This document shows positions 2,598-60,726 of a stretch of DNA of 64,000 nt, piece by piece (position 1 is the first letter of the stretch; every line of letters begins with the position of its first letter). This stretch comes from an uncultured Candidatus Saccharibacteria bacterium (lineage in GTDB: Bacteria > Patescibacteriota > Minisyncoccia > Phycocordibacterales > UBA918). The stretch covers positions 115,339-179,338 of the forward strand of contig CAYGKO010000001.1 of NCBI GenBank assembly GCA_964350735.1. The letters run 5' to 3'. The notes under the pieces are model-generated. The model ran no database searches. It had not been told where the DNA came from and saw nothing but the letters and a program-made list of their open reading frames with translations. Position numbers and translations under genes: made by a program.

Positions 2598-2669
2598 GCT
2601 CTCGTAGTTTAATGGATAAAACTCCGGTTTGCGGTACCGGTACTCCAGGTTCGACTCCTGGCGAGAGCA
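2598..2669 (+). tRNA. tRNA, anticodon loop UUGCGGU -> anticodon GCG (Arg); isotype less certain
   Basis: Cloverleaf: acceptor GCTCTCG/CGAGAGC, D-stem GTTT/AAAC, anticodon stem CCGGT/ACCGG, T-arm CCAGG-TTCGACT-CCTGG; no encoded CCA. Confidence 0.7.
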
Positions 2670-2719
2670 CGAGTACAAAAAAGCGCCCCTCTTGGGGCCT
2701 TTTTTGTTCGTGCTCTCGC
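2661..2719 (+). terminator. Long imperfect palindrome / intrinsic-terminator hairpin that includes the tRNA-Arg 3' acceptor strand
   Basis: gcgagagcacga...aaaaaagcgcccc tctt ggggccttttttgttcgtgctctcgc; the arms are near-perfect reverse complements. Confidence 0.5.
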
Positions 2720-2821
2720 AGAACTGTCTGGGAGACAGTTCGTCAGGAGTCGAAAAGGTTGCCTGCGATTTTGAAGTATGAAAAATCGTGACAACCTGTA
2801 CCGTTCATGTAATGAAAGATT

Positions 2822-2874
2822 TCCTGGCGAGAGCACAAATGAAAACAGCCCTTTGGGGCTGTTTTCATTTGTGC
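2822..2874 (+). repeat. Second copy of the tRNA-Arg 3' end (15-bp direct repeat tcctggcgagagcac; first copy at 2656-2670) fused to a 19-bp-stem hairpin (gcacaaatgaaaacagccc / gggctgttttcatttgtgc)
   Basis: The exact 15-mer recurs 166 bp downstream of the tRNA; an inverted copy of the T-arm (caggagtcgaa, 2744-2754) lies between the two. Confidence 0.6.
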
Positions 2875-2877
2875 GAA

Positions 2878-3381
2878 CTAGAATCCAAATATTTCCAGTA
2901 TTTTATTAACTACCGGTTCTTCTATATGTTCTTCAGGCAATCGCAGTTCGAGTATATCTTCAATCTCTTCGACATACTCTTCTGGTAGAGGCATGATAAT
3001 AAGCGGCCCAAATAGTTTTTGTGATCGAGCGAGTAAGTGTGGACCCAACTCATGATCTTCATCAATATAAAATGCTTCCAGTGCGCTGTATGGATACAGC
3101 TGGTCGTTCACCCGCAAGCCTCGAGTTGAGACAGCATAAGGTATCACTTGAGGTTCGCGGTTTGCTACCAGAGCAATTGCCCCTGCCCCAATAATTATCA
3201 AAATCGCTAGAAGAAAGTTACCAAAGAAAAACGCCGTTGCTGCGGCTGCAAACGCTAGAATACCAAGCACCCAAAACCAATCACTGTTTTTTTCAACGTG
3301 ATGATGTTCTAACGCTTCCCAAGTAACTGCACGAGCTGCTTCTACCATTGTCGCTATTGTATCACGGGCTTTGATGTACAT
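2878..3381 (-). CDS. Hypothetical small membrane protein (one long hydrophobic segment, acidic C-terminus)
   Basis: ORF trimmed to the internal ATG at 3379-3381, because the longer ORF-track version reads through tRNA-Ser on the opposite strand; stop sits next to the hairpin at 2833-2874. Confidence 0.4.
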   Translation of the reverse strand: MYIKARDTIATMVEAARAVTWEALEHHHVEKNSDWFWVLGILAFAAAATAFFFGNFLLAILIIIGAGAIALVANREPQVIPYAVSTRGLRVNDQLYPYSALEAFYIDEDHELGPHLLARSQKLFGPLIIMPLPEEYVEEIEDILELRLPEEHIEEPVVNKILEIFGF

Positions 3382-3424: not shown

Positions 3425-3509
3425 GGAGGGATGCCAGAGTGGTCGAATGGACTTGTCTTGAAAACAAGCGTGCGGCAACGTACCGAGGGTTCGAATCCCT
3501 CTCCCTCCG
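3425..3509 (+). tRNA. tRNA-Ser (anticodon UGA), long variable arm
   Basis: GGAGGGA acceptor, D-arm TGCCAGAGTGGTCGAATGG, anticodon stem-loop CTTGT-CTTGAAA-ACAAG, variable arm GCGTGCGGCAACGTACC, T-arm GAGGG-TTCGAAT-CCCTC; 85 nt. Confidence 0.85.
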
Positions 3510-3516
3510 CAACTGC

Positions 3517-3542
3517 AAAATAGCGCCTTTTGGCGCTATTTT
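3517..3542 (+). terminator. Intrinsic terminator after tRNA-Ser
   Basis: aaaatagcgcc-tttt-ggcgctatttt followed by a T-run. Confidence 0.6.
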
Positions 3543-3548
3543 GTTTGT

Positions 3549-3682
3549 GGAGGGAGAGTAAAGCGTGGGACGCTTTACGTAGGGATTCGAAGCTGTTGCC
3601 AGATATTTTTGGAGGCACGGCCGAACAAAAATATCGACAACGGATACTGGTTGTGTAGCAACCGAAATTCCCTCTCCCTCCG
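3549..3682 (+). ncRNA. tRNA-Ser-derived, scrambled tRNA-like element (pseudo-tRNA or structured RNA)
   Basis: Shares GGAGGGA at the 5' end and the 3' 14-mer TCCCTCTCCCTCCG with the adjacent tRNA-Ser, plus AGGGATTCGAA and TGCCAGA fragments, but there is no D-arm and an 8-bp hairpin GTAAAGCG/CGCTTTAC instead. Confidence 0.35.
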
Positions 3683-3683
3683 A

Positions 3684-3724
3684 AAAAGTAAAAGTCGCGC
3701 CCATGGGCGCGGCTTTTACTTTTG
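3684..3724 (+). terminator. Intrinsic terminator (GC-rich hairpin gtcgcgccc-atg-ggcgcggc flanked by A/T runs)
   Basis: aaaagtaaaagtcgcgcccatgggcgcggcttttacttttg. Confidence 0.6.
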
Positions 3725-4799: not shown

Positions 4800-6086
4800 A
4801 TGGAACACATGCTGTACTGGATCAAACGATTTCTACCGACCTCGCTTTTAAATAGTATCCGGCCGCTCTATCACTATTCTCTCGCTTGGCTGGGCGCCAC
4901 TATCTACCGCCACCCCTCAAAACACATTACCGTGCTCGCAGTAACTGGCACTAAAGGCAAGTCGACTGTTACCGAGCTGGTGACAAACATTCTTGAAGGT
5001 GACGGCAAATCAGTGGCATCGCTCTCTACGATTCAATTTAAAGTTGGCAACGACGTACGCCCAAATCTTTACAAAATGACCACCCCCGGGCGCTTCTTCG
5101 TGCAGTCATTCCTGCGTGAAGCCGTTGACGCCGGCTGTATTCACGCGGTCATCGAACTCACCTCAGAAGGTGCAAAACAGTTCCGTCACAAATTCCTGGA
5201 ACTTGATGCACTGATTTTTACCAACCTGACACCAGAACATATCGAGTCACACGGTTCGTTTGAAAACTACAAGAACGCCAAGTTACAAATCGCCAAACAG
5301 CTTGAAGCATCGGTGAAACAACCTCGCTTCATCGTCTCCAATACCGACGATGAACATGGCACGGACTTCTTAGCTGTCGACGTAGAAGAAAAAATCCCGT
5401 ACGGTTTAAAAGATCTTAAACTTTATACCCTGCACAAAGACGGGATCGGCCTCATTTTTACCGACGGCGAAGACGAACGAACTATCCGGGTTCCGCTCGT
5501 CGGACTCTTTAATGTCTACAACGCCCTAGCAGCTATCAAACTGACTCGAGCTCTCGGAGTGTCACTTAATTCTATCGAGAAGTCCTTGCGGTCATTACCC
5601 CCAGTCAAAGGTCGGGTGGAACATGTGTATAGCCCAAAGGAGGCCACCAAACAAGTGACCGCCATCGTCGACTACGCCCACACTCCCGACTCACTCGAAA
5701 AGCTCTACCAGGCCTTTAAAGACGTGCCTAAGATTGGTGTACTCGGTAACTGTGGTGGTGGCCGCGACAGCTGGAAGCGCCCGGAGATGGCTAGTATCGC
5801 CGAACGCTACTGTGACTACATCATTCTCACTAACGAAGATCCGTACGATGAAAATCCGCGGCAGATCGTCGAGCAAATGACTAAAGGAATTGAAAACAAA
5901 GAGAAATTTGAAATCATCATGGATCGGCGAGCAGCTATCGCCACCGCGATCAAGAAAGCTCCGTCCGGTGGCTACGTGCTCATTTCTGGTAAAGGAACTG
6001 ATCCGTACATCATGGGACCAAACAACACCAAAGAACCTTGGAGCGATGCTGAGGTAGCGGCTGAAGAATTAGCGAAGCTAACGTAA
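4800..6086 (+). CDS. murE: Mur ligase family protein, probably UDP-MurNAc-tripeptide synthetase MurE
   Basis: VTGTKGKST P-loop, DNPR-like C-terminal domain (NEDPYDENPRQI), GKGTDPY; 429 aa from ATG 4800. Confidence 0.65.
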   Translation: MEHMLYWIKRFLPTSLLNSIRPLYHYSLAWLGATIYRHPSKHITVLAVTGTKGKSTVTELVTNILEGDGKSVASLSTIQFKVGNDVRPNLYKMTTPGRFFVQSFLREAVDAGCIHAVIELTSEGAKQFRHKFLELDALIFTNLTPEHIESHGSFENYKNAKLQIAKQLEASVKQPRFIVSNTDDEHGTDFLAVDVEEKIPYGLKDLKLYTLHKDGIGLIFTDGEDERTIRVPLVGLFNVYNALAAIKLTRALGVSLNSIEKSLRSLPPVKGRVEHVYSPKEATKQVTAIVDYAHTPDSLEKLYQAFKDVPKIGVLGNCGGGRDSWKRPEMASIAERYCDYIILTNEDPYDENPRQIVEQMTKGIENKEKFEIIMDRRAAIATAIKKAPSGGYVLISGKGTDPYIMGPNNTKEPWSDAEVAAEELAKLT

Positions 6087-6087
6087 C

Positions 6088-6119
6088 AAAAAACCTTTCG
6101 ATATATCGAAAGGTTTTTT
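6088..6119. terminator. Bidirectional intrinsic terminator between convergent murE and the SpoU gene
   Basis: aaaaaacctttcgatat/atcgaaaggtttttt, a perfect palindrome. Confidence 0.7.
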
Positions 6120-6120
6120 G

Positions 6121-6603
6121 TTACTTTTTGAACAACACTATCCCCGCGGTCACCGAGACATTCAGTGACTCCTTCATGCCAGCCATTGGTATCTCAAGTA
6201 TTTGATCACAGACTTTGATTATTGCTTCTGGTACTCCATCCACTTCATGCCCGAGCACATAGACCACTTTTTCTGGTACAAAAAAATCGTAGTATGAAAT
6301 TGACTCTTCTCCCTGCTCGATTGCGACCACCGTCCACCCGTCAGCCTGAAGCTCATTAATTAAGGCGAGAGTCTCGTCTAACGACTCGCTCGTCGCTTCT
6401 CCCACATGCTCCCAGAGAATACTCTCACTCGCCCCGAGCGACGTCTTCTTAATCTCAGCCACCTCCCGCCCAAAGCGATCAATCGGCAATGGCGTCGTAC
6501 CGACTAAGTACAAATGCTCCACCCCCGCCCCATCACTGGTCCGGAAAATCGACCCCACATTATGGGCACTCCTGATGTTGTATAAAATCGCTCGTTTTTG
6601 CAT
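6121..6603 (-). CDS. SpoU/TrmH-family RNA 2'-O-methyltransferase (TrmL-sized)
   Basis: NVGSIFRTSDGAGV, LGHEVDGV and IPMAG...SLNVSVTAGIVLF are the SPOUT motifs; 160 aa. Confidence 0.7.
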   Translation of the reverse strand: MQKRAILYNIRSAHNVGSIFRTSDGAGVEHLYLVGTTPLPIDRFGREVAEIKKTSLGASESILWEHVGEATSESLDETLALINELQADGWTVVAIEQGEESISYYDFFVPEKVVYVLGHEVDGVPEAIIKVCDQILEIPMAGMKESLNVSVTAGIVLFKK

Positions 6604-8128: not shown

Positions 8129-8201
8129 CCGCCCTTAGCTCAGTTGGTAGAGCAGCTCCCTTTTAAGGAGATGGTCCCAGGTTCGAGCCCTGGAGGGCGG
8201 A
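8129..8201 (+). tRNA. tRNA-Lys (anticodon UUU)
   Basis: CCGCCCT/AGGGCGG acceptor (C1-G72), D-arm GCTCAGTTGGTAGAGC, anticodon loop CUUUUAA, T-arm CCAGG-TTCGAGC-CCTGG. Confidence 0.8.
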
Positions 8202-8251
8202 CAAATGAAAAGACCGGCTTAGCCGGTCTTTTCATTTGTCCGCCCTCCAGG
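8189..8251 (+). terminator. Perfect 30-bp-arm palindrome (terminator-like) whose left arm contains the last 13 nt of tRNA-Lys
   Basis: cctggagggcggacaaatgaaaagaccggc-tta-gccggtcttttcatttgtccgccctccagg. Confidence 0.7.
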
Positions 8252-8650
8252 TGCAGGATTTGTGCATACAAATCCGTTGCATGGCTCGAAAAGCTTTTGT
8301 GGTATTTTAGGAACGTAGTGAACTAAAATATCCAAAAGGTATACTGTTCATGTAATGGAAGAGTCCACATTATTTTAAATAAAAAATGAGATTGTCCCAG
8401 TGGGGCAATCTCATCGTGTTCAATTCAACGAGGACGTTGACAATTTGAACATGTCTTCTGGCCCTCGCTGTTACTGCTGAAAGTGCAGTGACTGCACCTC
8501 CAGCAACCCGAAGGTGGCGTTGGGTTTGTTTTAGGTTCGGATTTTTGACCAGATCCTGGCATAGAATTTCTTTCTTTGGAACAGGGAGAATAATATTATA
8601 ACATACAATTGCTTTTTTAGCAAGTATTACACTTATGCTACAGTACCCTC

Positions 8651-9382
8651 ATGCTCCCCCCTTCCCTAACCCACGCCATCTCAACCGCCACCGACGGCAA
8701 TATGGGCCTGCGTTTTGGTACTGAAGCAGAAGTCACTCTAAACAGAAAGACGTGGCTTACGAAGCAAAATATTGACCCCAACCAAGTCTGCTTAATGGAC
8801 GTTGCTCACGAAGCCGACATCTTCGATGTGACTAAAGAAAACTTTGAACCCAATATGCGACCCGTCTGTGACGTCCTCGTGATTCAAGAACCAAACCTTG
8901 CCCTGATGCTCCTCACTGCCGACTGCCTGCCGGTCACTATCTACGATCCGGTCACCACCACCATCGCCCTTGGTCACTTTAACCGGCACAATATTCCCTT
9001 TGAAATCGCTAAGAAGACTATCACTCATTTAGTAGAACACTACGGCAGCAACCCAGCGGACCTACTCATTCACATTGGTCCCTGCATCAGCGCAGATTCA
9101 TACCGCTTCCCCCTCCCACTTCAACAAGAACCCCCACCTGCCACAAAGCCGTACGTAAAAATTAAAGATAACCACGCTCATGTCGACGTCACCCGCGCGC
9201 ATGTCGATGCACTACTTGAAGTTGGCGTGCCAGAAAAACAAATCACCCTCCCCACCATCGACACTGCCACTCACCCCAACTACTACTCCCACTTCGCCAC
9301 CAAACAACTCGAAACCAAACCAGACGGCCGCTTTGCAACGGTCGTGCTACGAAAAATCCTACAGGATCAACACCCCATCTAA
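8651..9382 (+). CDS. YfiH/PgeF (DUF152, laccase-domain) family protein
   Basis: LTADCLPV and ALGHFNRHN blocks resemble the conserved Cys/His motifs of PgeF/YfiH; 243 aa. Confidence 0.5.
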   Translation: MLPPSLTHAISTATDGNMGLRFGTEAEVTLNRKTWLTKQNIDPNQVCLMDVAHEADIFDVTKENFEPNMRPVCDVLVIQEPNLALMLLTADCLPVTIYDPVTTTIALGHFNRHNIPFEIAKKTITHLVEHYGSNPADLLIHIGPCISADSYRFPLPLQQEPPPATKPYVKIKDNHAHVDVTRAHVDALLEVGVPEKQITLPTIDTATHPNYYSHFATKQLETKPDGRFATVVLRKILQDQHPI

Positions 9383-9987
9383 ACCTCCACACACGGTGCA
9401 ATTCTTTCGATAGTGTGAATACCAAGTCGCTCAAGTTCTGCAGCGAAGGCCTCAGAAATGAAGAAGCCTTTGGCGACTACCTGACCAATATCCAGCCAAA
9501 CATGACGCCGCCCTACTCGGCTCTTCTTAACATGGAATTCCAATTCAGGAATCTGACTGTAATTGAAACAATATCGACCGTCTTCTAGAAAACTGTGTTC
9601 CACATGATTTCCCGAACCAAAGACAATGGCATCTACGGGTCCAACTAGATTCATAAAATAATATTCATCGATCACTGGGCCGGTCTTCGATTTACGCAGT
9701 GATACTGGATGGAAGATGGTTGGTGTAGGCTCCCATTTTTCAACTAGTGTCCGGAGCTCCTTTGACACGATAGGGATGCCGTCGCAGGCCATGGTTAAAT
9801 GTGAGAGTACTTTTCGTGGCTTACGAAGATAAAGCTCATTTGGCAGACATCCTAATTCTAAGGGAACCCCAGCTCGCGCGCTGTCAGAGTATTTCACAAT
9901 TTCTGCACTCGTACGTGAATCGTCGGGCATTCGTGAAAGAGGGACAGAACCTGATCCTGAGTATGCCCCACTAACAAACCAAGCCAT
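9379..9987 (-). CDS. Hypothetical protein
   Basis: 202 aa, no recognisable motif. Confidence 0.4.
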   Translation of the reverse strand: MAWFVSGAYSGSGSVPLSRMPDDSRTSAEIVKYSDSARAGVPLELGCLPNELYLRKPRKVLSHLTMACDGIPIVSKELRTLVEKWEPTPTIFHPVSLRKSKTGPVIDEYYFMNLVGPVDAIVFGSGNHVEHSFLEDGRYCFNYSQIPELEFHVKKSRVGRRHVWLDIGQVVAKGFFISEAFAAELERLGIHTIERIAPCVEV

Positions 9988-10104
9988 GTTCCACCTGACT
10001 GATTACTACTGTTGATTGTGCTATTTTCATACTCTCAGTGTAATACAAACGTCTACATAATTTAATAAAAACTCTGTCTCGTTGTTGCAGCAATGATTAG
10101 GTGA

Positions 10105-10806
10105 TTACAATTTCAACAACCACCGCTCCAATCCTTCATTAATATCAACCACTCCCCCATGACCATCGTGATAGAGCGTAAGGAGGGAGAGTGAGAGTGA
10201 TTCTAGTTCGCCGTCTTTGAAGGTACTGAGTGCGCGTTTGGCTTTGTTGTAGGGGAAATCTTTCATACCAGCTTCACTGGCTGAACTGGTAAGTTTGGCG
10301 AGCCGGAGTGACTTGAGTTGCCACCATAGAATACCAATCAGTTCCTCAGCACTTTGCCCAGCTGCGACCGCCTCTTGGTAGATCAGCCAGAGGGATTTTT
10401 TATCTTTCTTGGCGAGTGCGTCAGCAATGGCGAAGCTGTTGAAACGCTCCCCGGCAGCTGCTTTATACTCGGTCATCTCAGCCGCGTGTTTGGCCCACTG
10501 CTTTTTAGCCGCTGCTAGTAGGGCCCCTTCGATCACCACGAACTGGGTACTCGAAGTCGCAAGCACTTCAAGGACATCTATACATTCAGTATTAAAATCA
10601 GCACTACTACTTGGAGTATCAATCAGATAGACTGTCTCTCCACCAAAGAGCGATGTCGCTCCCGCTGCATCGCGGAGCATGCCGGACTGCCAAGTGTCGC
10701 TGTCAATTAGTTCCACTGTCGCCCCCTTATCTTCGAGCGGCTCTACAAAAGTAAAAGCAGCTTGTCGAACTTTGATGGTGTCGTTGCCGTAAAAAACCTG
10801 TAACAT
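10105..10806 (-). CDS. holA: DNA polymerase III delta subunit-like (HolA)
   Basis: Size and pattern (VYLIDTPSS..., C-terminal helical GILWWQLKSLRLAK) are consistent with HolA; moderate. Confidence 0.5.
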   Translation of the reverse strand: MLQVFYGNDTIKVRQAAFTFVEPLEDKGATVELIDSDTWQSGMLRDAAGATSLFGGETVYLIDTPSSSADFNTECIDVLEVLATSSTQFVVIEGALLAAAKKQWAKHAAEMTEYKAAAGERFNSFAIADALAKKDKKSLWLIYQEAVAAGQSAEELIGILWWQLKSLRLAKLTSSASEAGMKDFPYNKAKRALSTFKDGELESLSLSLLTLYHDGHGGVVDINEGLERWLLKL

Positions 10807-10815
10807 ATCCTTATT

Positions 10816-11199
10816 ATGAACTATCTTGCCTATCTATTAAACCTACCGTGGTCACTACTTGGATTGTGTAACGCATTTTTTTCTATTCCGGTTAGGATTC
10901 AGATCAAAAAAAATGCTTTGGTTTTTCATTCTCAATGTTGTGGACTAGTCCATTTTTACGCTCCAAAAGCAAAAGGGGTTACCCTTGGAAATATAATAAT
11001 CGTAAAAAAATCTGCACCTCAAAATATTACTAATCATGAATTAATTCATATAGAACAAGCTATGCGTGAGCCTTTTTTGTTTCAAATATTATATATTGTT
11101 GAACTACTACGGAAAGGTTACTGGAAAAATAAATATGAGATTGAAGCCTATAATCGTTCAAACTCTTGGCCACCCACAAATGGCCCGCGCAACGATTAA
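10816..11199 (+). CDS. Small HExxH-motif protein (putative mini zinc-metallopeptidase)
   Basis: HELIHIEQ...(20 aa)...EIEAY fits HExxH plus a downstream Glu; AT-rich gene convergent with polA. Confidence 0.3.
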   Translation: MNYLAYLLNLPWSLLGLCNAFFSIPVRIQIKKNALVFHSQCCGLVHFYAPKAKGVTLGNIIIVKKSAPQNITNHELIHIEQAMREPFLFQILYIVELLRKGYWKNKYEIEAYNRSNSWPPTNGPRND

Positions 11200-23044: not shown

Positions 23045-23361
23045 ATAAAGTCTTTCGGCGCCCCATCTGCACCTAGCCGTCCTTTTAAATGAGTGAGTAT
23101 CTCTTTTTTATGTAACAGAAGTTCTGATTTCAACGGCCCGCCAGATTTCAAAGTAATTATCCGAGTACTTGGTTTATATGACACATTACTCTCTTTAACT
23201 GCAATATCTAAAAGATCAGCTACAACCTCGACAAATGCTTTTCGCACACTTGCTTCTGGGGCTTTTAGAATGTTTTTATACTTAGCAAACAAATCCCCCA
23301 CCTTCACAACCTCACCACGACCAAACCTTCGCTGCTCTTTAGTTTTCTTAAAGGCAGACAT
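23041..23361 (-). CDS. Hypothetical protein downstream of dnaN (positionally DciA/DUF721-like, unverified)
   Basis: 106 aa basic protein; start overlaps the dnaN stop. Confidence 0.3.
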   Translation of the reverse strand: MSAFKKTKEQRRFGRGEVVKVGDLFAKYKNILKAPEASVRKAFVEVVADLLDIAVKESNVSYKPSTRIITLKSGGPLKSELLLHKKEILTHLKGRLGADGAPKDFI

Positions 23362-24455
23362 TACTTATTCATTGGCATCACAAGATATCGAAGTGACTTA
23401 TCATTCACTCCTTCCATCACCATTGGGCGTCCGATACCAGCCATATGTAATACGATACTATCGTCACTAATATGACTTAAAGGTTCTGATACATACCGCT
23501 GATTGAAACTTAAAGTGAGTTCATCACCTTCAGTACTTGCTCGTACGGATTCGGTAGTTGTTCCAACCTCACCACTATTAGCTGAGACTGTGATTGAGTC
23601 TTTTGTGACATGCACACCAACTTGAAAGAATTTATTTAAAAAGATATTCGTCTTCTTAAATGCGTGACTAAGATCATTTTTAACCAACGTTGAATGGGTG
23701 ACGTATTCTTTTGGAATAATCTGCTCATAATCCGGAAATGAGCCTGTGGTAAGACGTGAGGTTATGTATACCCCATCAGAAAATTCTAAAGAAAACTGAT
23801 TTTCATTAACTCGACAAACTGGGTCAGTATCTTTCATATCACAAACCCTCGATAATTCGACAGCATTCTTTTGTGGTAGTAATATTGACTCTTCAAAAAT
23901 AACTCCTTTTTGCGGCACTGTTTTCTCCATCAAACGAAACGAGTCTGTTGTAACAAAAGTAAGGCTTTGTTCTTTCTTTTGAAACACATAAATACTTCCA
24001 AGCTCTGGTTTAATTGAAGATTGTGAAGCAGCAAAGGCTGTTGTTTTTATACCTAGAGAGAATAAATTATTATTTATCACTTGTCCTTCGGTTGTAAGTC
24101 TCGGGATAGTTGGAAACTCTTCATGTGGAATACTTTTAAGCGTGGTTTCAGAACCAGTCCCTTCAACTACTAGCGAATTATCTTCAACTTTTAAGGTAAC
24201 TTCTTTTTGAGTATGAAGATTTATTATTTGAATCAAGGTACTAGCCGGAACGGCAACACAACCAGTCTCAACAATAGTTGCTTTGATTTCAGTTTCAATC
24301 CCTATTTCAAGATTTGTTGCTTTAAGTACACACGTCCCTTTATTCACTTCAAATACCACACATTGAAGAACTGGGAGTGTTACATGTTTTGTACTAACTC
24401 TTCCAACGAGATCTAATTTTTCTTTTAACTCCAAAGTATCAACCGTAATGTGCAT
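23361..24455 (-). CDS. dnaN: DNA polymerase III beta sliding clamp
   Basis: 364 aa, three-domain clamp pattern, position downstream of dnaA. Confidence 0.85.
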   Translation of the reverse strand: MHITVDTLELKEKLDLVGRVSTKHVTLPVLQCVVFEVNKGTCVLKATNLEIGIETEIKATIVETGCVAVPASTLIQIINLHTQKEVTLKVEDNSLVVEGTGSETTLKSIPHEEFPTIPRLTTEGQVINNNLFSLGIKTTAFAASQSSIKPELGSIYVFQKKEQSLTFVTTDSFRLMEKTVPQKGVIFEESILLPQKNAVELSRVCDMKDTDPVCRVNENQFSLEFSDGVYITSRLTTGSFPDYEQIIPKEYVTHSTLVKNDLSHAFKKTNIFLNKFFQVGVHVTKDSITVSANSGEVGTTTESVRASTEGDELTLSFNQRYVSEPLSHISDDSIVLHMAGIGRPMVMEGVNDKSLRYLVMPMNK

Positions 24456-24791: not shown

Positions 24792-26207
24792 TTATTTGAG
24801 TAGGAGTCTAATTTGCGTAATTTCTTCTTCGAGCTCGTTGTTATCTTTAAGGTCATTTTTTACCTTTTCACATGAGTGAATTACAGTTGTATGATCACGA
24901 CCCCCCATTTTTTGTCCAATGGCTGGGTATGAGACTTGGAAATCTTCACGCAAGATATACATAATGAGCTGGCGAGGCTTCACTACCTCTTTACGACGAG
25001 TTTTTTCGTAGATTGATGACGGATCAATGTCGAAGTAGCGAGCGACTTTATCTACGACATCAGAAACAGCGAGGGTTTTCCGAGGCCGGGTGCTATTTTT
25101 GATGATCTGTTTTACCTCATCAAGTGAAAGGGTCCGCCCAAGTAGTTGTGACTGACACATAATAGTGTTTAAAGCTCCTTCTAATTCTCGGATGTTCCCT
25201 TCAATGGTGTGCGCAAGATGTTCGACCACATCGTCACTAAGTGAAATACTATTTTGAGCTGCTTTAGCTTTAAGGATTGCTGCTCGCGATTCGAGATCTG
25301 GCGCTGGGATATCAACAATCATCCCTTGAGCGAAGCGCGACTGTAGTCGTTCTTCCATTCCATTAAGTAACGCTGGGTGGATGTCACTTGAAAATACAAT
25401 TTGTTTGTTTGTGTCGTGTAGAGCATTAAACAGGTGAAATAATTCCTCCTGCGTCTTCTCTTTGTTAGTTAAAAACTGGACATCATCCATGATAAGAGCA
25501 TCATATTGACGGTACTTGTCTTTGAAGCTATTGGCGGTTCCGTTTTGTAGAGAGTTGAAATAATCAACAGTAAACCGCTCACTCGTGACATAAAATACTT
25601 TTTTACCCTGTCGCTTCAGGTGATTGCCTACTGCCTGGATGAGGTGGGTTTTACCATGGCCGGTTTTACCGTAGATAAACAATGGATTATAAGTGATACC
25701 TGGTTTTTCACTCACTGTTTTTGCTGCAGTATGAGCTAAAGCATTAAAAGGTCCGATTACAAACGTGTCAAAAATATACTTCGGGTTAAGGTTGTCACTC
25801 TTATTGATGTAATACTCCTCTAGGGGTAGGGCTGCGTTTACGGTTTGTTGTTTTGTTTCTTGCCGCTTGTCATTTCGTTGTACGACAGCGTACTCAATGC
25901 TTCGCACGTGTGGAGTGAGGTCCCGCAGGGTTTTAAGGATGAGTGACTGGAATTTATCCGAAAGCCAATCTCGGACAAATACACTCGGGACACCGATAGT
26001 GATAGTTCCGTCTTCAAGCGAAACAATGTGGGTATCTTTAAACCAAGTTTTGAAATTGGCGGGAGTAATTGAAAGTTCGACAGAGACTAAAGCATCATCC
26101 CACAGCTTTTTTACATCAACTTGTTCAGTTTCAATGATGCTATTACGAGACGAAGAGTGTGTAGTGGGATTCATACCAATCAAACAGACGTTTAAGGTAA
26201 GAAGCAT
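24792..26207 (-). CDS. dnaA: Chromosomal replication initiator DnaA
   Basis: GKTGHGKTHL Walker A, AAA+ box, C-terminal HTH (HTTVIHSCEKV); alternative start at 26174. Confidence 0.9.
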   Translation of the reverse strand: MLLTLNVCLIGMNPTTHSSSRNSIIETEQVDVKKLWDDALVSVELSITPANFKTWFKDTHIVSLEDGTITIGVPSVFVRDWLSDKFQSLILKTLRDLTPHVRSIEYAVVQRNDKRQETKQQTVNAALPLEEYYINKSDNLNPKYIFDTFVIGPFNALAHTAAKTVSEKPGITYNPLFIYGKTGHGKTHLIQAVGNHLKRQGKKVFYVTSERFTVDYFNSLQNGTANSFKDKYRQYDALIMDDVQFLTNKEKTQEELFHLFNALHDTNKQIVFSSDIHPALLNGMEERLQSRFAQGMIVDIPAPDLESRAAILKAKAAQNSISLSDDVVEHLAHTIEGNIRELEGALNTIMCQSQLLGRTLSLDEVKQIIKNSTRPRKTLAVSDVVDKVARYFDIDPSSIYEKTRRKEVVKPRQLIMYILREDFQVSYPAIGQKMGGRDHTTVIHSCEKVKNDLKDNNELEEEITQIRLLLK

Positions 26208-26932: not shown

Positions 26933-27670
26933 ATGTTTAGTTATATTTGGCACACGTTTTTCTTCGACCCAGTGTACAACGGTCTAGTTTTCTTCATTGA
27001 TATTATTCCTGGCGGCGATATTGGTTTAGCCATCATCGCGATTACAGTAGTGGTGAAGTTGCTCTTACTCCCTCTCTCAGTGAAAGCGGCCAAGACGCAG
27101 GTGATTATGCGCGAGTTGGAGCCAAAGCTTAAAGAGATCAAAGAGAAGTTTAAAGATAAGCGTGAAGAACAAGCGCGAGCGATGATGGATCTGTATAAAG
27201 AAGCTGGACTGAATCCGTTTGCCAGTATCCTTCTAATTTTGATTCAGTTGCCAATTATTTTTGCCCTCTACTTTTCAGTTTATAGTGGTGGTGGTGTAGC
27301 GTTGCCTGAAATCAACACGGCTCTTTTATATAGTTTTATTCCCACTCCTGAGTTTGTCAGTATGATCTTCTTAGGAACGATTGATATAGCAGCTAAAAGC
27401 TGGCCCCTTGCCCTCTTAGCTGGAGTCACGCAGTTTATTCAATCACACCTAGCTATTCCTAAACCTACTCCTCGTGAACCAGGGGCTGAGCCAAGTCTTA
27501 AAGATGACTTTGCGCGTAGTATGCAGCTCCAAATGCGCTATGTAATGCCTGTGTTGATTGGTTTTGTAGCGTACTACATCTCAGCCGCCATCGCTCTATA
27601 TTTTGTAGTCAGTAATATCGTTGCTATCGCTCAAGAGCTGTACGTTCGAAAGTACAAGAGACAGAATTAA
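26933..27670 (+). CDS. yidC: Membrane protein insertase YidC (short Oxa1-like form)
   Basis: 245 aa; the conserved YidC helices and synteny after rnpA. Confidence 0.8.
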   Translation: MFSYIWHTFFFDPVYNGLVFFIDIIPGGDIGLAIIAITVVVKLLLLPLSVKAAKTQVIMRELEPKLKEIKEKFKDKREEQARAMMDLYKEAGLNPFASILLILIQLPIIFALYFSVYSGGGVALPEINTALLYSFIPTPEFVSMIFLGTIDIAAKSWPLALLAGVTQFIQSHLAIPKPTPREPGAEPSLKDDFARSMQLQMRYVMPVLIGFVAYYISAAIALYFVVSNIVAIAQELYVRKYKRQN

Positions 27671-28512
27671 GGTTTTACACAAACATATTCTGTTAGAGAA
27701 CCGACGGTCATTTCTCTTATTTCATTACCGGTTTCAGTTGCAAGTGTGGCACCTTCACATTCGTCATACCAAATATCTATAATTTCATTCTTCTCATCAA
27801 TTGATCGGCCTTCAAATTCACTAACATTAAATCTTTTAACTACTGATTTAAACTCACCAGCCTCAATTCTTTTTTGCTCTTCTTCAGCAATCACTTCACG
27901 CTCTTCTTTTGTTTTAGATAGGGTTCCAAAACTACTATCGATACACTCATATCCACTGGGAATACTGGGGTTTTTGGTATAAGTTTGATTGCAGCCACAT
28001 ACACCACCTGCTTTGGATTGGTCACAGGCTGCGTCTCGTTCTGCCCTGAATTCTATCCCCACCTCCCCCCGCGCATTAAACACACAGCCCGGCTTTGGGT
28101 TATTAGGGTCTGAAGAATCCTTCGGGCTACATATCTCTTCTAAGGCTGTAAAGTCTGTCAGCTTTGGATTAATGGTCTCTAAAATTAACACTGCTCCCAG
28201 CACAATCAGTAACCCTAACAACGCACCTTGAATTTGCTTCTTAGCCGCTCCTTTATCAGTTACCACGTCACTCAACATGTACTGAACACCAGCTAAAATG
28301 ATTCGGACTACCGCTAAGAACGCAGCGACTGAGATAGATAGAATGTAGAGTGCGTTGATGTAGCCAGCGGTAGAGAGATTGTTGGGATCGAGGCCGGGGA
28401 TGCCGACGAGTTGCACAAACCCCTCAGCCAAAACAAAATTTGGTAGGAGTAATAAAAAATTAATGAGGATTATTTTAGGAACCAATGAGATCATATTGCC
28501 AAAGTGTGCCAT
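27667..28512 (-). CDS. VirB2/TrbC-topology pilin-like protein A with Cys-rich C-terminal extension
   Basis: Signal peptide, two TM helices (ALYILSISVAAFLAVVRIILAG / ALLGLLIVLGAVLIL) separated by a short basic loop, then about 140 aa with 8 Cys; the core is 100% identical to paralogue B. Confidence 0.45.
   Translation of the reverse strand: MAHFGNMISLVPKIILINFLLLLPNFVLAEGFVQLVGIPGLDPNNLSTAGYINALYILSISVAAFLAVVRIILAGVQYMLSDVVTDKGAAKKQIQGALLGLLIVLGAVLILETINPKLTDFTALEEICSPKDSSDPNNPKPGCVFNARGEVGIEFRAERDAACDQSKAGGVCGCNQTYTKNPSIPSGYECIDSSFGTLSKTKEEREVIAEEEQKRIEAGEFKSVVKRFNVSEFEGRSIDEKNEIIDIWYDECEGATLATETGNEIREMTVGSLTEYVCVKP
28067..28411. repeat. 345-bp perfect direct repeat, copy 1 (inside pilin A)
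   Basis: Identical base for base to 30057-30401, checked line by line. Confidence 0.9.
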
Positions 28513-29641
28513 CAATTTTATTTACAAAATATAATACCCCACCCTCTTCATTCATCTGAGTAACATCAATCGGTCGATTAGAGGTGCTAAAAAGATCAAT
28601 TTTTAAGGTAGATATTCCAGTTACTAAGTTAGTTTCCCAAATAATATCTTGTGAGTTTCTATTTCCTTTATACCAATTTTCGATATAGTCCGGAGTAAGC
28701 TGTTCGGATGGTGATGCACACCATAGTGTACTGCCAATTGCGTCGCATTTTTCCGGCAGAGGTACTATCGCTAATTCAATTAAGTCAGGAAATATTTGAG
28801 CACGAGCGACTCCATATAATACTTCACCATCAGTTTCTGTAGTGATGAAATGGTCGCTGGTTGGAAACCCAACAAAACCAAAACTACTTGGAGTGACTGC
28901 TTCGAGGCTATTATTAGTTGCTTTGTATAAACTTCCTTCTAATAACTCACTCGACTTTGGATGCACAAAAACTTCTGACCCACTTTGGTAGATAATCACA
29001 TCTTGTAAACTCAGGCTCTGACTTTGGTTTTGTTCGAGCGTCTCACCATTAAAGGTAAATAACCCACTCCCCGTAGTAGTATTGGTTGAGTAACTAATCG
29101 TATTATCCCCAACAGATATATTCTCTATATTAATTGGTAGTGATCGACCAACAACAGAACCACTGCTGCCAGAGATTTCTATCCTTCCGAAAAATGTTTC
29201 ACGGATATATCCAGATTCGGATACTAAGGCCACGTATTCACCGCTGGTTGAAAAATAGGCTTCAGTGACTCGAGGAATAGTGGTGCCTGAGATTCGTCTC
29301 TCTTCCCCAGAGTCTAGGTTAATTTCGTAAATATGCCCAGTTCCATTCTCTGCGTATCGCACAAATAAAGAGGAAGTGCTTGAAACCACAGTGAAGCCTG
29401 CTACCGGCCGGAGCGTTAGTTGGCGGAGCGCTTCGCCAGAAACATCAATTAATACATCAGGATCTGGATTAACAGGATCAATCAAAATTGGATTTTCTGG
29501 TTGCTCTGTAATATCAAAACCAAAGTTTGAGAAGATACTCGTCCCAGTCTCATCAGTGTTAAAGAACATTAAGTATGCCCATAGCCCTAGTACTAGGAAT
29601 ATTACGACTATTCCAGCGATAATAAAAAGAGGTTTTTTCAC
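28475..29641 (-). CDS. N-terminally anchored beta-propeller-like protein (TolB/PD40-like repeats), T4SS-cluster member
   Basis: GTG start, TM anchor MKKPLFIIAGIVVIFLVLGLWAYL, then repeated beta-strand-rich blocks; sits between the two pilin paralogues. Confidence 0.4.
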   Translation of the reverse strand: MKKPLFIIAGIVVIFLVLGLWAYLMFFNTDETGTSIFSNFGFDITEQPENPILIDPVNPDPDVLIDVSGEALRQLTLRPVAGFTVVSSTSSLFVRYAENGTGHIYEINLDSGEERRISGTTIPRVTEAYFSTSGEYVALVSESGYIRETFFGRIEISGSSGSVVGRSLPINIENISVGDNTISYSTNTTTGSGLFTFNGETLEQNQSQSLSLQDVIIYQSGSEVFVHPKSSELLEGSLYKATNNSLEAVTPSSFGFVGFPTSDHFITTETDGEVLYGVARAQIFPDLIELAIVPLPEKCDAIGSTLWCASPSEQLTPDYIENWYKGNRNSQDIIWETNLVTGISTLKIDLFSTSNRPIDVTQMNEEGGVLYFVNKIDGTLWQYDLIGS

Positions 29642-29698
29642 GTATATAGTATACCAAGCTAGTTAACGGTAGTTTTGTATCATTCGGGATAGGTATTG

Positions 29699-30490
29699 CT
29701 ATGGTTGACTGCACTGAAATCCAGTGACGATTCCCTCTGCGTTCCTAACTTGTTTAGCACCATGACAACCGGTAGGCCTACCCGGGTTACCAGGTTGTCT
29801 GTCTTTAAATGTGCAACCACAAACTCGCTCAGCATAGTCAGCCTGCTTTTCTAGCACATTTTTTAATACCTCCCCTTGAACATCTGCTCCTTGAGAGCCG
29901 TTTAGTGCCGCCTCTTCTTCTTCAGTTAATTCAATAGTTTCAAAATCTTCATCAATCTCTATATTTTGTTCACGCAATCTCTGTGCCTCAGTTTTACTTA
30001 CAGAGCAAGCCCCATCTTCACCAGTAGCAGCACAAAATGATATAACCTCTACTCCTCCCCGCGCATTAAACACACAGCCCGGCTTTGGGTTATTAGGGTC
30101 TGAAGAATCCTTCGGGCTACATATCTCTTCTAAGGCTGTAAAGTCTGTCAGCTTTGGATTAATGGTCTCTAAAATTAACACTGCTCCCAGCACAATCAGT
30201 AACCCTAACAACGCACCTTGAATTTGCTTCTTAGCCGCTCCTTTATCAGTTACCACGTCACTCAACATGTACTGAACACCAGCTAAAATGATTCGGACTA
30301 CCGCTAAGAACGCAGCGACTGAGATAGATAGAATGTAGAGTGCGTTGATGTAGCCAGCGGTAGAGAGATTGTTGGGATCGAGGCCGGGGATGCCGACGAG
30401 TGGTTTATATGAATTGATAGTTTCTTGTCCAAATGTAGCTAGGGGTAAAAAGAATAAAATAAGTAGTAGCAGTAAACGCAAATTGAACAT
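29699..30490 (-). CDS. VirB2/TrbC-topology pilin-like protein B with divergent Cys-rich C-terminal domain
   Basis: Different signal peptide and C-terminal domain; the central 115 aa are identical to pilin A. Confidence 0.45.
   Translation of the reverse strand: MFNLRLLLLLILFFLPLATFGQETINSYKPLVGIPGLDPNNLSTAGYINALYILSISVAAFLAVVRIILAGVQYMLSDVVTDKGAAKKQIQGALLGLLIVLGAVLILETINPKLTDFTALEEICSPKDSSDPNNPKPGCVFNARGGVEVISFCAATGEDGACSVSKTEAQRLREQNIEIDEDFETIELTEEEEAALNGSQGADVQGEVLKNVLEKQADYAERVCGCTFKDRQPGNPGRPTGCHGAKQVRNAEGIVTGFQCSQP
30057..30401. repeat. 345-bp perfect direct repeat, copy 2 (inside pilin B)
   Basis: Identical to 28067-28411; offset 1990 bp. Confidence 0.9.
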
Positions 30491-30491
30491 A

Positions 30492-31448
30492 TTAAAAACG
30501 CAGTGTGAAGTTATTTTGAACCCCTTGTAGTAATTGGGTTAAGTTACGAATATGGAATTCAATTTTGAAATTGCCGTTTCCTCCACCATTTTGTAGAGTG
30601 ATAGTTTGTTGATCTTCGTTGGGGTTTTGAATCACTGATCCATTAATTGACCACTCCAGTAATGGGTTGCTTTCAAATATTGATTCATCCATGTAGTACG
30701 GCTCAGCTCGAACATCAACTTCTGGGCCAACCAAGCTGTAGACAGTGGGTACAGAAATCCGGGAGATCCCGCGCAGTGGGTTGTCGGGATAAAAATATAA
30801 TTCTGGCTGCACAGCTGGAATGACGAGGCTGTCGCTCGCAATTACTTCTCCTGTTTGAGTGAGTACATCAACTCCTAATATAGCGTCTCTACCCATCGGC
30901 ATCTGGAATTCTGCTACATGTTTACCTTTAATAGAACCTCCAAATAATACCTTGTTGTTTAAACGCCACACGTATGAGTAGTTTTTAGGGTCGGTACCGT
31001 TAATCTGCGGTAGGGCTACAGCTCGAACAGTACTGTCGGTAGAAGGTAGGGCACGACCTTTGTAGAAACTCGGTGTGAGAGTTTTTGCTTCGATAATTAT
31101 GTCTAGGCGCTGCGGTTGTAGAGTATACGTAACAGGAATAATACGGCCAACACGAGTGGTGATTTCTGCCATTATTTTATTTATTGACCCAGCCACTGGT
31201 GCCACTAGCTCAATAGTTCGATTATTAGCAGCTGGCAATAATTCTTCATCGTCAACAAACCACTTGATACTTCCACCGCTAGTATCGATAGTATAGGCAT
31301 TGAGTGACAGTTCGACAATTTCGCCTGGTTCAGGAAAACGCGGGTCAGCAATAATTGAAATATTTGTCTCGCCAGTCAATGTTTGGGCTGAACCAAAACA
31401 TGGGAATACTAATAATAACAATATAAAAATAGATCGGAATCGATACAT
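30492..31448 (-). CDS. Secreted protein of unknown function (signal peptide), T4SS-cluster member
   Basis: MYRFRSIFILLLLVFPCFGSAQT signal peptide; 318 aa. Confidence 0.4.
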   Translation of the reverse strand: MYRFRSIFILLLLVFPCFGSAQTLTGETNISIIADPRFPEPGEIVELSLNAYTIDTSGGSIKWFVDDEELLPAANNRTIELVAPVAGSINKIMAEITTRVGRIIPVTYTLQPQRLDIIIEAKTLTPSFYKGRALPSTDSTVRAVALPQINGTDPKNYSYVWRLNNKVLFGGSIKGKHVAEFQMPMGRDAILGVDVLTQTGEVIASDSLVIPAVQPELYFYPDNPLRGISRISVPTVYSLVGPEVDVRAEPYYMDESIFESNPLLEWSINGSVIQNPNEDQQTITLQNGGGNGNFKIEFHIRNLTQLLQGVQNNFTLRF

Positions 31449-31479
31449 ACTACAAGAATACCATGGGTAAATGCTGCTA

Positions 31480-32193
31480 TTACCTCGTGATGTAGGTAGC
31501 GCCAGCCCAGATAGTAGCCCACGGGAGCATTCCTCCCGAAAGAGGGGCTATAGATAGCGCTAGTAAAATTATAAAAGTGTAGGTACTCATAAAAGTTAGA
31601 AGCTTAATTTTATTCATTACGAGATAAGAAGAACACATACTAAATATCGCGATCAGAGAACTGATAAGCCATCCAACAGCGAAGAAGATATATCCAAAGG
31701 TGGCAGGATCAATAAATAAATCAAGGAAAGGAATATATTCAGTAAGAGTAGTGCCAAAAGCAGCCAGTGCCGCGCCAAATAAACTCATAACCCAAAAAGA
31801 TAAACCTAACTGCCAGCCAAGGAAAGTGATTGGTATAACAATTCGGCCTACAAATAATCTTCTCGCTACACCTCTGGCGAGACGAATCATTATATTTTGT
31901 TTTTCTGATCCCCGCGCCACTTGAGTAAACGAGTTTTGTTGATTTGGCTGTAATAGCCAGTCGTTTACATCATCATGAGATTTTTTTGCTAGTTTTTTTG
32001 TTGAGAGCGTGCGGGCTCCATATTGGACGTGATTGAATTGGCTGCTGATGTCACGCTTATCTAGATTGTCAGCCAACATTTTTGAGCGCAAGCTCATGTT
32101 TTTTCGAACAGCTGCCCGGCCTATCTTTTTAACTTTTTTAACAGCCTTGGATCCAACTACTTGTGCTGTTTCCACAATAAGAGGTGCAGCCAT
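31480..32193 (-). CDS. Membrane protein (basic N-terminal region, about 4 C-terminal TM helices), T4SS-cluster member
   Basis: 237 aa; sits directly downstream of virB4. Confidence 0.4.
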   Translation of the reverse strand: MAAPLIVETAQVVGSKAVKKVKKIGRAAVRKNMSLRSKMLADNLDKRDISSQFNHVQYGARTLSTKKLAKKSHDDVNDWLLQPNQQNSFTQVARGSEKQNIMIRLARGVARRLFVGRIVIPITFLGWQLGLSFWVMSLFGAALAAFGTTLTEYIPFLDLFIDPATFGYIFFAVGWLISSLIAIFSMCSSYLVMNKIKLLTFMSTYTFIILLALSIAPLSGGMLPWATIWAGATYITR

Positions 32194-32196
32194 ATA

Positions 32197-34008: not shown

Positions 34009-34010
34009 AT

Positions 34011-34652
34011 TTATTGGTTGGGGGCGTTACCTGCAATATCGCCGGGATTGAAGATATGATAGTAGAGTTCAACTAATTCTTCGTTTTGTAAGGCGACAGT
34101 TTTAACACCAACTCGGTTGAGTCCTTGTTCGACGACAGTGACTCGTTGTTCTAGCTGAGTACGATGCTCTGCAAATGACTGATCTTCAATCACTACATTT
34201 TTCTTGGCCCCAAATAGGCTGCTAATATTGGACTTGAGATTGATATCAACTGGTGTATACGGAATTACTACAAAGAAGTTCTTGGTCATGATATCAACTT
34301 CGCTAGTGAATGTTTTCACAAACTGCATATACTCTCGGAGCTGAATCTTCATGAGGTCGTTATATTGATCATCTTCTCGGGCTGCTAACAGTCCAAGATA
34401 CGGCTTGATGTCTAGTCGTCGTGACTGCACGTAAATCTGTAATGAAAAATCAATGGTGTTTAAAAATGATTGAAACTGTCGCAAAATAGAAGCTTGTTCA
34501 TCAAGAGACTTAAGGGCAAAGTTGATAGAAGAGGCTAAGAGCACCATGTTCATCTGTCCGTTTTTTAAGACCACCACCCCATCACGAATATCTTGCACGG
34601 GGACAAACTGTTGGGTGGAAGCTTGATTTTGAGTTTTTGTTTTTGCAGGCAT
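34011..34652 (-). CDS. VirB4 N-terminal domain encoded as a separate ORF (split or frameshifted virB4)
   Basis: FVPVQDIRDGVVVLKNGQMNMVLLASSINFALKSLDEQASILRQFQSFL matches the N-terminal module of Gram-positive/CPR VirB4 homologues; TAA-AT-ATG junction with the next ORF. Confidence 0.5.
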   Translation of the reverse strand: MPAKTKTQNQASTQQFVPVQDIRDGVVVLKNGQMNMVLLASSINFALKSLDEQASILRQFQSFLNTIDFSLQIYVQSRRLDIKPYLGLLAAREDDQYNDLMKIQLREYMQFVKTFTSEVDIMTKNFFVVIPYTPVDINLKSNISSLFGAKKNVVIEDQSFAEHRTQLEQRVTVVEQGLNRVGVKTVALQNEELVELYYHIFNPGDIAGNAPNQ

Positions 34653-34653
34653 A

Positions 34654-35082: not shown

Positions 35083-35086
35083 GGCT

Positions 35087-35119
35087 AACGCGGGTGGAAG
35101 CTTTGCTTCCACCCGCGTT
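35087..35119 (-). other. Perfect 15-bp-stem hairpin inside the operon, between the acidic protein gene and the VirB3-like gene
   Basis: aacgcgggtggaagc-ttt-gcttccacccgcgtt, no T-run. Confidence 0.5.
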
Positions 35120-35124
35120 ATCCC

Positions 35125-35670: not shown

Positions 35671-35680
35671 AGTTAATTAT

Positions 35681-37762: not shown

Positions 37763-37763
37763 A

Positions 37764-39329: not shown

Positions 39330-39331
39330 AT

Positions 39332-60705: not shown

Positions 60706-60726
60706 TTCCCTGCTACAATACTGGTA

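Follow-up and report, generated by a model that had tools for sequence, protein, structure and literature searches.

Integrative elements and islands that target transfer RNA (tRNA) genes, including tyrosine-integrase elements, cis-mobilisable remnants and arrays of the tycheposon type, regenerate an intact tRNA, bound their inserts with direct repeats of the tRNA 3′ part, stack in tandem and bring cargo islands to the same site. The CTX phage, which like other elements lacking an integrase makes use of Xer recombinases, occurs in tandem arrays as well. In its attP(+) form, two inverted copies of the attachment (att) sequence fold into a hairpin, the geometry of which is given in PMC3089051. 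Integrons collect cassettes in arrays, each cassette ending in an imperfect palindrome (attC) that is conserved more in structure than in sequence, and their cargo is optional and variable. Among RNAs, tRNA-like non-coding RNAs (ncRNAs), such as the tRNA-like domain of transfer-messenger RNA, bacterial Y-like RNAs and mascRNA, place an acceptor-like stem on a T-like stem and hold a non-tRNA domain inside. Here, we describe a 64,000-nucleotide (nt) stretch of contig CAYGKO010000001.1, hereafter the window. The 166 bp between the tRNA-Arg gene and the end of a second copy of its 3′ terminus (positions 2671–2836) are one unit of a family of structured cassettes gathering at tRNA 3′ ends in Paceibacteria, and the tRNA-Ser and tRNA-Lys genes of the window carry equivalent units. 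The reading we lean towards, giving it slightly less than an even chance, is that the units are integrase-less miniature cassettes for which the tRNA 3′ end is the site of integration, possibly in the form of folded single strands. Full-text searches found no literature description of such units, and the family has apparently not been described before. The TIGR-Tas arrays of Candidate Phyla Radiation (CPR) bacteria and phages are reportedly 36-nt guide RNAs, unrelated to the units.

The tRNA-Arg(GCG) gene occupies positions 2598–2670 of the forward strand (ARAGORN; Rfam tRNA, 62.6 bits). Its last 21 nt, from the T-loop to the 3′ end (2650–2670, +), are designated X. The original prediction stated that the 3′ end of this tRNA recurs downstream, and the repeat is exact. 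The 15-mer TCCTGGCGAGAGCAC is found exactly twice in the window, at the tRNA end (2656–2670) and, as the distal X, at 2822–2836 (+), with no further match in the window when up to two mismatches are allowed (0.05 expected in a shuffle test). The palindrome with the acceptor strand, the inverted T-arm and the second hairpin reported between the two copies are all present. A terminator hairpin, hp1 (2671–2709, +; inner stem 2685–2698), has an A-run and a T-run on both sides and forms with its flanks a long palindrome (2661–2719; arms 2661–2680 and 2700–2719) that includes the acceptor 3′ strand. A hairpin of the GAGTAYAAAAA type, like hp1, also stands behind tRNA-Arg of the related locus L002 and behind other tRNAs. 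The last 10 nt of the palindrome are X′a (2710–2719, +), the exact reverse complement of the last 10 nt of tRNA-Arg, comprising the acceptor 3′ strand, the discriminator and a C. The next element is h (2721–2741, +), a 9-bp hairpin (GGG loop) that interrupts the inverted copy of the tRNA, followed by X′b (TCAGGAGTCGAA, 2743–2754, +), the reverse complement of the T-stem 3′ strand and T-loop, which is the inverted T-arm and is 93% complementary to 2650–2664.

The remainder of the unit is a type-A core (2750–2820, +), recognised by the covariance model R1 with 64.1 bits (E 1e-15) and supported by covariation. It starts at TCGAA, shares positions 2750–2754 with X′b and consists of P1 (GGTTG/CAACC), P2 (GATTTT/AAAATC), the junction GTACCG and the P3 hairpin TTCAT-GTA-ATGAA, which is the 16-mer GTTCATGTAATGRAAG at 2803–2818. 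After the distal X, a perfect hairpin with 19-nt arms, hpN (2833–2874), doubles as the terminator of the convergent gene 2878–3348 (−) and is directly followed by GTGC, a 4-nt stub of another X′a. The list of the terminator scan does not contain hpN, the T run of which sits inside the descending arm. Short-read Logan contigs of the source sample (L001/L083) stop 5 nt past tRNA-Arg and within the core of the Arg unit, probably because palindromes and repeats break up assemblies at this place. The contig ends were weighed as a sign of population heterogeneity but not used as such, since inverted repeats alone can break such assemblies.

The window contains only three tRNA genes, Arg-GCG, Ser-TGA and Lys-TTT (ARAGORN; Rfam, 58.9–66.4 bits), and behind each of them lies a unit of about 165 bases partly made of the 3′ end of its own tRNA. 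The original prediction reported the Arg and Lys loci, both of which are real, and overlooked the tRNA-Ser copy with the same architecture. The common order is tRNA[...X] – hp (terminator) – X′a – h – X′b – core – X – hp, and the unit length in the family is about 110–175 nt. X consists of the T-loop, the T-stem 3′ strand, the acceptor 3′ strand, the discriminator and one further base, and X′ is an inverted copy of the last ~23 nt of the tRNA, cut in two by the short hairpin h. X′a is the complement of the acceptor 3′ strand and discriminator, and X′b that of the T-stem 3′ strand and T-loop; the inverted copy also includes complements of the base next to the discriminator and of T-loop positions 59–60 (AG in Arg, AT in Ser, GC in Lys). 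A model of the unit as a degenerate second tRNA copy with a T-loop insertion was rejected because its 5′ half is the reverse complement of the tRNA 3′ end and not a sense copy.

The tRNA-Ser(TGA) gene (3425–3510, +; ARAGORN, Rfam) is followed by a palindrome (3499–3558, +) composed of the acceptor 3′ strand, the terminator hp1 and X′a (3547–3558). The h hairpin with its GGG loop (3558–3578, +) and X′b (TAGGGATTCGAA, 3580–3591, +), complementary to the T-loop and T-stem 3′ strand, lead into a type-A core (3587–3666, +; R1 71.6 bits) with P1 GTTGCC/GACAAC, P2 GATATTTTT/AAAAATATC and P3 GGTTG-TGTAG-CAACC. The distal X (TCCCTCTCCCTCCG, 3669–3682, +) is an exact 14-nt copy of the tRNA-Ser 3′ end, and a terminator hairpin, hp2 (3684–3723), closes the unit.

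At tRNA-Lys(TTT) (8129–8202, +; ARAGORN, Rfam), the terminator had been described as a perfect palindrome including the tRNA 3′ end. The palindrome (8189–8251) is indeed 100% complementary, with 31-nt arms (8189–8219 and 8221–8251) that take in the last 13–14 nt of the tRNA; its parts are the T-stem and acceptor 3′ strands, a caaatgaaaa... hairpin and X′ (8238–8251). The h hairpin (8252–8281) and X′b (TGGCTCGAA, 8282–8290) occupy 8252–8290 (+), and the type-A core (8286–8367, +), with an orthologue in the related locus L082, gives the best R1 match, 83.5 bits. This unit has X′a, h, X′b and core; X is reduced to a short remnant, GAGTCCA, and the acceptor copy is absent. Two motifs had been noted as common to the Arg and Lys loci. 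The caaatgaaaa motif is present in both hairpins (CAAATGAAAA, at 2836/2862 in Arg and 8202/8229 in Lys), but the Arg hairpin is the native terminator and lies outside the inserted unit. The 16-mer GTTCATGTAATGRAAG, given 2 nt away from its true coordinates, is found at 2803 and, in the Lys core, at 8346–8361, and is the core hairpin P3.

Two further hairpins were observed in this part of the window. One (8388–8412, gagattgtccc agtg gggcaatctc), behind an A-rich run, would terminate minus-strand transcripts only, and there is no minus-strand gene upstream; it may close the Lys unit or be part of an unannotated small RNA. The other, a near-perfect palindrome at 6080–6127 (24-nt arms without a spacer, 96% complementary) between the convergent genes of a Mur ligase and a SpoU methylase, is a bidirectional terminator with A-runs and T-runs in the style of the post-tRNA hairpins.

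The core is under structural selection. In an alignment of 25 cores from the window and related genomes, the consensus comprises three helices, P1, P2 and P3, and the invariant nucleotides lie within TCGAA, GTACYG and the GTA loop of P3, which is itself invariant. All 17 core pairs show compensatory double changes (17/17), 93.1% of pairing cells are occupied by pairs against 59.6% in shuffles, and the covariation score of 0.755 (0.184 in shuffles) was reached by none of 500 shuffles and drops to 0.09–0.17 once the partner columns are slid. Isolated Arg and Ser units have predicted-fold z-scores of −4.75 and −6.2, respectively. Their predicted fold closes on X′/X and contains a 7–8-bp acceptor-like stem, the hairpin h and a T-like stem that leads to the P1–P2/P3 junction.

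Such a fold could also belong to an RNA. The units might be structured ncRNAs produced by read-through from the tRNA promoter, a possibility that we take seriously and yet hold to be doubtful. Their closing stems, reusing the acceptor and T-stem, would give them the look of a minihelix to RNase P, 3′ processing and CCA-adding enzymes, or else would pair with the 3′ end of the tRNA itself and alter its maturation or stability, and the function, the binding of a protein or ligand, would reside in the three-helix core. The acceptor-like and T-like stems around a three-way junction, the strong covariation and the conserved junction nucleotides agree with this. However, no match to Rfam 15 was obtained for the window units and one type-B unit at either gathering or permissive thresholds; the threshold was reached by tRNAs only, and weaker matches were driven by terminators or tRNAs. 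Neither ARAGORN nor Rfam placed a tRNA or tRNA-like family at the unit fold. Unlike the tRNA-like ncRNAs named above, the units copy the acceptor and T sequences of the adjacent tRNA, have the T-loop replaced and show neither a promoter of their own nor an Rfam match. Known ribozyme cores (hammerhead, hairpin, twister, pistol, hatchet) were rejected by eye because required motifs, e.g., CUGANGA...GAA, are missing from the junction. DNA-type GNA mini-hairpins have been described (PMC13037366). At the P2 tip, mini-hairpins of the GCGNAGC type, a mark of single-stranded DNA, occur in 9 of 42 loops against 9% expected, which is too weak a signal.

The position of the terminators bears on the same question. 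The intrinsic-terminator criterion is satisfied by hairpins at the unit edges only and not by the core; the scan lists the inner stem of hp1 and that of the Ser hp2 (3696–3711, minus-strand only). The units lie between terminators, and in about two thirds of them a canonical terminator parts the tRNA from the unit, while no promoter is predicted inside; both facts speak against a read-through transcript. Units without a terminator (L013, L017, L039, L049) are necessarily co-transcribed with their tRNA, as an ncRNA would be. Yet in L039, where co-transcription is certain, the acceptor-like stem has two mismatches, and a perfect 31-bp pairing with the tRNA 3′ strand would compete with tRNA folding. 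In a reading made partly by eye, X′a has 0–1 mismatches in units with a terminator and 2–4 in five units without one. This hints that perfect X′a pairing is a DNA-level feature that is harmful in RNA. Rapid gain and loss, replacement of one type by another, tandem amplification and the flanking of cargo, set out below, would also be unusual for a housekeeping RNA.

The suspicion that the window holds a repeated element family is supported, as many tRNAs have related units, some of which form tandem series or surround cargo genes. A census of tail copies covered 168 tRNAs in 80 related loci and the window. An inverted copy of the tRNA tail of at least 8 nt was found no more than 170 nt downstream of 23 tRNAs (control 0.12%) and a direct copy of at least 10 nt downstream of 18 (control 0.06%), so that both types are more than 100 times commoner than in controls. 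The direct repeats in relatives are mostly 15–24 nt long and take in CCA where CCA is gene-encoded. The covariance model R1 detects about 40 strong core copies in 1.36 Mb of related genomes, nearly all 60–300 nt downstream of a tRNA (Arg, Ser, Lys or Val) on the same strand, with few orphans. In each case, X is the 3′ end of whichever of these tRNAs adjoins, and there is no family-wide dif-like or GTTRRRY core site. Units occur in many Paceibacteria genomes singly, in tandem or flanking cargo genes. A longer type-B core, GACGGAG...GAGTCGGGGTCG...CGTGACC, was read by eye behind many tRNA-Lys genes, and one core variant has pieces of the tRNA 5′ end at its flanks.

These numbers bear on the simplest explanation, namely that the hairpins are ordinary conserved terminators accompanied by a chance repeat or a decayed integrase scar. 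The shapes of hp1, hp2 and hpN are those of canonical intrinsic terminators, as in known bidirectional terminators, and hpN is conserved at orthologous tRNA-Arg loci. Nevertheless, the hairpins account for the unit edges only, the conserved and covarying part being the core between them, and a chance 15-mer repeat is expected only ~1e-4 times (128,000/4^15). The outcome under which the motifs would occur at two places only is contradicted by the R1 copies and their position behind tRNAs. We therefore regard this explanation as very improbable. Repetitive extragenic palindromes and miniature inverted-repeat transposable elements are short, non-coding, palindrome-rich and multi-copy like the units, which differ from them in being tied to tRNA 3′ ends and not dispersed, with "terminal inverted repeats" that are tRNA-specific.

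Several variant loci were observed among the relatives. Upstream of tRNA-Ser in L082 (8799–8870, −), a core variant, GGTGAGAAA-hairpin-TTCGCAAGA..., is flanked by copies of the 5′ acceptor strand (GGAGGG) and the D-arm (GGCTGAGTGGTTG) of tRNA-Ser. Duplicated tRNA 5′ pieces thus accompany some members of the family. The same variant is nested in type-B units of L016 and L022. Locus L045 (4140–4580) contains several partial tRNA-Lys copies around an assembly gap (a run of N), one of them with a type-A core after the T-stem 5′ strand; either the locus is rearranged or its repeats have led to a wrong assembly. In L034, ARAGORN predicts a 90-nt tRNA-Ser with the unusual anticodon ACT (5626–5715), the 3′ end of which recurs 1.8 kb downstream, beside a type-A unit.

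The comparison of relatives for the 2671–2836 segment, which the original prediction had proposed, was informative. In L082, from a relative with an 88% identical neighbouring protein, the 166-bp unit and hp1 are absent from tRNA-Arg and about 1.8 kb of other DNA with open reading frames (ORFs) stands in their place. The hairpin hpN (GCAC followed by aaatgaaaacagccc...gggctgttttcatttGTGC) is kept and ends this insert beside the same gene end as in the window. In the metagenome loci L097/L114 and L115, hpN lies directly behind tRNA-Arg and is followed by X′a, h, X′b and a core, of type B in L114 and type A in L115. Since hpN adjoins tRNA-Arg in relatives, it is the native tRNA-Arg terminator of the clade, and we read the window as having one extra unit between tRNA-Arg and hpN. 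Within the L082 insert (9491–11151), three repeats of 28 nt (GTTCGGCCTGTATCCCGCTCATGGGCAC, read in tRNA orientation) and two of 39 nt were noted; they split it into two cassette-like units with unknown ORFs and resemble the tRNA 3′ end and its complement in degenerate form.

The other two loci show replacement and conservation, respectively. At tRNA-Ser, the terminator of the L082 unit is not that of the window, and the core is of type B instead of type A; L114 and L115 differ likewise at both tRNAs, as do L006 and L007 at tRNA-Val. The tRNA-Lys unit of L082 is orthologous to that of the window. A T-stem base pair of its tRNA is flipped and X′ has changed likewise, so that the palindrome is still perfect, and there are compensatory or wobble-to-Watson-Crick changes in the inner stem of hp, in h, P2 and P3. 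Right after the unit, the identity between the window and L082 drops to random and the flanks are unalignable; the preservation of the unit but not its flanks would also suit an ncRNA. Of the earlier proposal of an integration scar, a remnant or a miniature element, the inserted unit of a repeated family stands; a decaying scar does not, as the core is conserved with compensatory changes.

The perfect palindromes, with X′ tracking the T-stem flip between the window and L082, could also arise if the units were functionless by-products of DNA metabolism. Template switching at a quasi-palindrome would have extended the terminator into the tRNA and given X′, local duplication or unequal crossing-over would have given the direct repeat, and gene conversion would keep the likeness; recurrent palindrome correction would do what is seen in L082. 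Two tRNAs, in L054 and L081, have the inverted copy alone, with no core, and the identical tandem copies in L039 are possible by unequal crossing-over. This account leaves unexplained the homologous covarying core at different tRNAs in dozens of genomes, the differing core types at orthologous sites and the cargo islands flanked by units, and we consider it unlikely.

Arrays and cargo islands are features shared with known integrative elements. The L039 array holds four identical 153-nt units in tandem and a fifth of another type, and heterogeneous arrays are found in L006, L010 and L025. In L062, a 3.2-kb island lies between two copies of one unit that differ at 3 positions. It encodes a weak HTH_17/MerR-like helix-turn-helix protein and two unknown proteins, and it ends on the right in a degenerate copy of the tRNA 3′ part, of which only the last 7 nt, GGGGCAC, agree with the tRNA. 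L034, with 1.7 kb of cargo between the tRNA and its unit, and L082 are comparable cases. The palindromic motif CGTGCTAG(C/T)ACGA was observed after the tRNA or the distal X in L032, L034 and L062; cargo DNA starts at it in L034 and L062, and the motif may form the left terminus of a type of element that carries cargo.

In L062 and in the arrays, the islands and further units land at the distal X and leave the tRNA and first terminator intact. This would be expected if the units were domesticated mimics of att sites that serve the host at the DNA level. They might act as decoy or occupied sites that spare single-copy tRNA genes, or might offer insertions a landing pad beyond the tRNA and its terminator. 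Both the constraint on the conserved Lys unit and the tiny genomes, in which each tRNA gene is probably present once, would be in keeping with such a role. Nonetheless, the need for a three-helix core with conserved loops would be unexplained, and the patchy distribution speaks against a strong host benefit. We find this improbable too.

Integration of miniature cassettes, the reading given at the outset, draws on the same observations as follows. The units sit between an intact tRNA and its earlier downstream neighbour, which at Arg is the native terminator. They may be added by recombination within X, like integrative elements at tRNA genes, and, as each supplies its own terminator, the tRNA gene would stay intact and insulated. 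Units hold no ORF, and no recombinase was found in units or islands; they are therefore taken to be non-autonomous, and would be mobilised in trans or be cargo-less derivatives. The spacing of X′ to X is ~75–90 nt (67–77 nt in the Arg and Ser units of the window). Pairing of X′ with X could fold one strand into a hairpin of ~125–150 nt in which the attachment sequence is duplex, and the conserved core could be a structure recognised by recombination or replication machinery, or a priming structure. With tRNA-targeting integrative elements, the units share the intact tRNA, the direct repeats, the tandem stacking and the cargo islands at the same site (L062, L034, L082). Unlike them, they measure only 110–175 nt, lack an integrase in both units and cargo islands, and have an inverted att copy, a covarying core and a terminator of their own.

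The spacing of the inverted copies, the size of the hairpin and the lack of an own recombinase recall CTX attP(+) (PMC3089051), and a Xer-like recombinase gene is present in the window. The units differ from CTX in targeting a tRNA 3′ end and not dif, in an att sequence that varies with the tRNA and in a spacer that is a conserved structure; the element is ~50 times smaller. Arrays of units ending in structurally conserved imperfect palindromes with optional cargo resemble integrons, whereas IntI, attI and a cassette promoter are missing, the core site is tRNA-specific and not GTTRRRY, and the inverted copies can lie on either side of the cargo, not behind it as in integrons. A bolder proposal, which we judge rather unlikely, is integron-like capture at tRNA 3′ ends through single-strand X′-core-X hairpins with an integrase acting in trans, or else a new class of tRNA-mimicking RNA. 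On the integron-like side, the 110–175-nt units would be minimal cassettes with a terminator as their only cargo. If true, either version would add a previously undescribed kind of element or RNA, one with a wide distribution in a major lineage of uncultured bacteria.

A number of results weigh against the integration of miniature cassettes. No integrase, transposase or reverse transcriptase was found in the units or in the L062, L034 and L082 islands with Pfam and PHROGs. The sole recombinase among the 48 window ORFs compared with Pfam, the Xer-like gene at 60670–61644, is 52 kb from the nearest unit, that of tRNA-Lys, and is probably a housekeeping gene. Neither a strictly empty site in a near-identical strain nor a circular junction was found. 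Searches of IMG/VR viral contigs with two degenerate core patterns gave 0 and 4 matches; a viral origin was rejected, all 4 matches being chance hits on contigs without a tRNA gene. The Lys unit has no distal acceptor copy and is nevertheless conserved with compensatory changes in L082, which fits a host-useful structure better than an immobile relic. In the paired core columns, G-U exceeds A-C by 27 to 9. This mildly favours the tRNA-sense strand as the one that folds, possibly as RNA, and counts for the read-through ncRNA. Finally, this reading does not account for the retargeting of the family to different tRNAs, with both X and X′ changed.

The window is chromosomal DNA of a bacterium of the Patescibacteria (CPR), of Paceibacteria/Kaiserbacteria type. 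Its ORFs are housekeeping genes, among them pilM, ruvX, rpsT, ruvA, a Mur ligase, polA, dnaA/dnaN, tyrS and PNPase. The best relatives of the Mur ligase are encoded by metagenome-assembled genomes of Paceibacteria (amino-acid identity of up to 76%), and the protein encoded between the Arg and Ser loci has an exact match on a 408-kb NCBI contig and is also present on a Logan contig of ERR3534985. As dnaN (23361–24455) and dnaA (24792–26207) stand side by side and the cumulative GC skew turns at ~30 kb, the window probably contains the replication origin; in that case, transcription of the three plus-strand tRNA genes (2.6–8.2 kb) would run head-on to replication. A minus-strand block (27667–40222) of large ORFs, mostly without a Pfam match, includes a VirB4/TraG-like ATPase (32197–34008) and a PrgI-like protein (34654–35112) and looks like a type IV secretion or conjugation-like cluster. 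The Xer-like gene (+) encodes a 324-aa tyrosine recombinase with a SAM_1-type N-terminal domain and has TrmB-family regulators on both sides (58644–59399 and 62643–63368). An Imm11-family immunity protein (9379–9987, −) and an NYN-domain nuclease-like protein (56640–57278, −) are possible conflict-system candidates amid an otherwise housekeeping region.

In practical terms, the palindromes and repeats of the units coincide with ends of short-read contigs of the source sample. The ultra-small CPR/Patescibacteria have tiny genomes with probably single-copy tRNA genes, and the unit is notable because few mobile elements are recognised in them and their ncRNAs are little known. Here, at least a fifth of the examined tRNA genes are accompanied by a structured, covarying unit of ~150 nt. 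The unit may represent a new class of tRNA-linked RNA. As a new minimal kind of site-specific mobile DNA, it would bear on gene acquisition in these bacteria and on recombination substrates that mimic tRNA genes.

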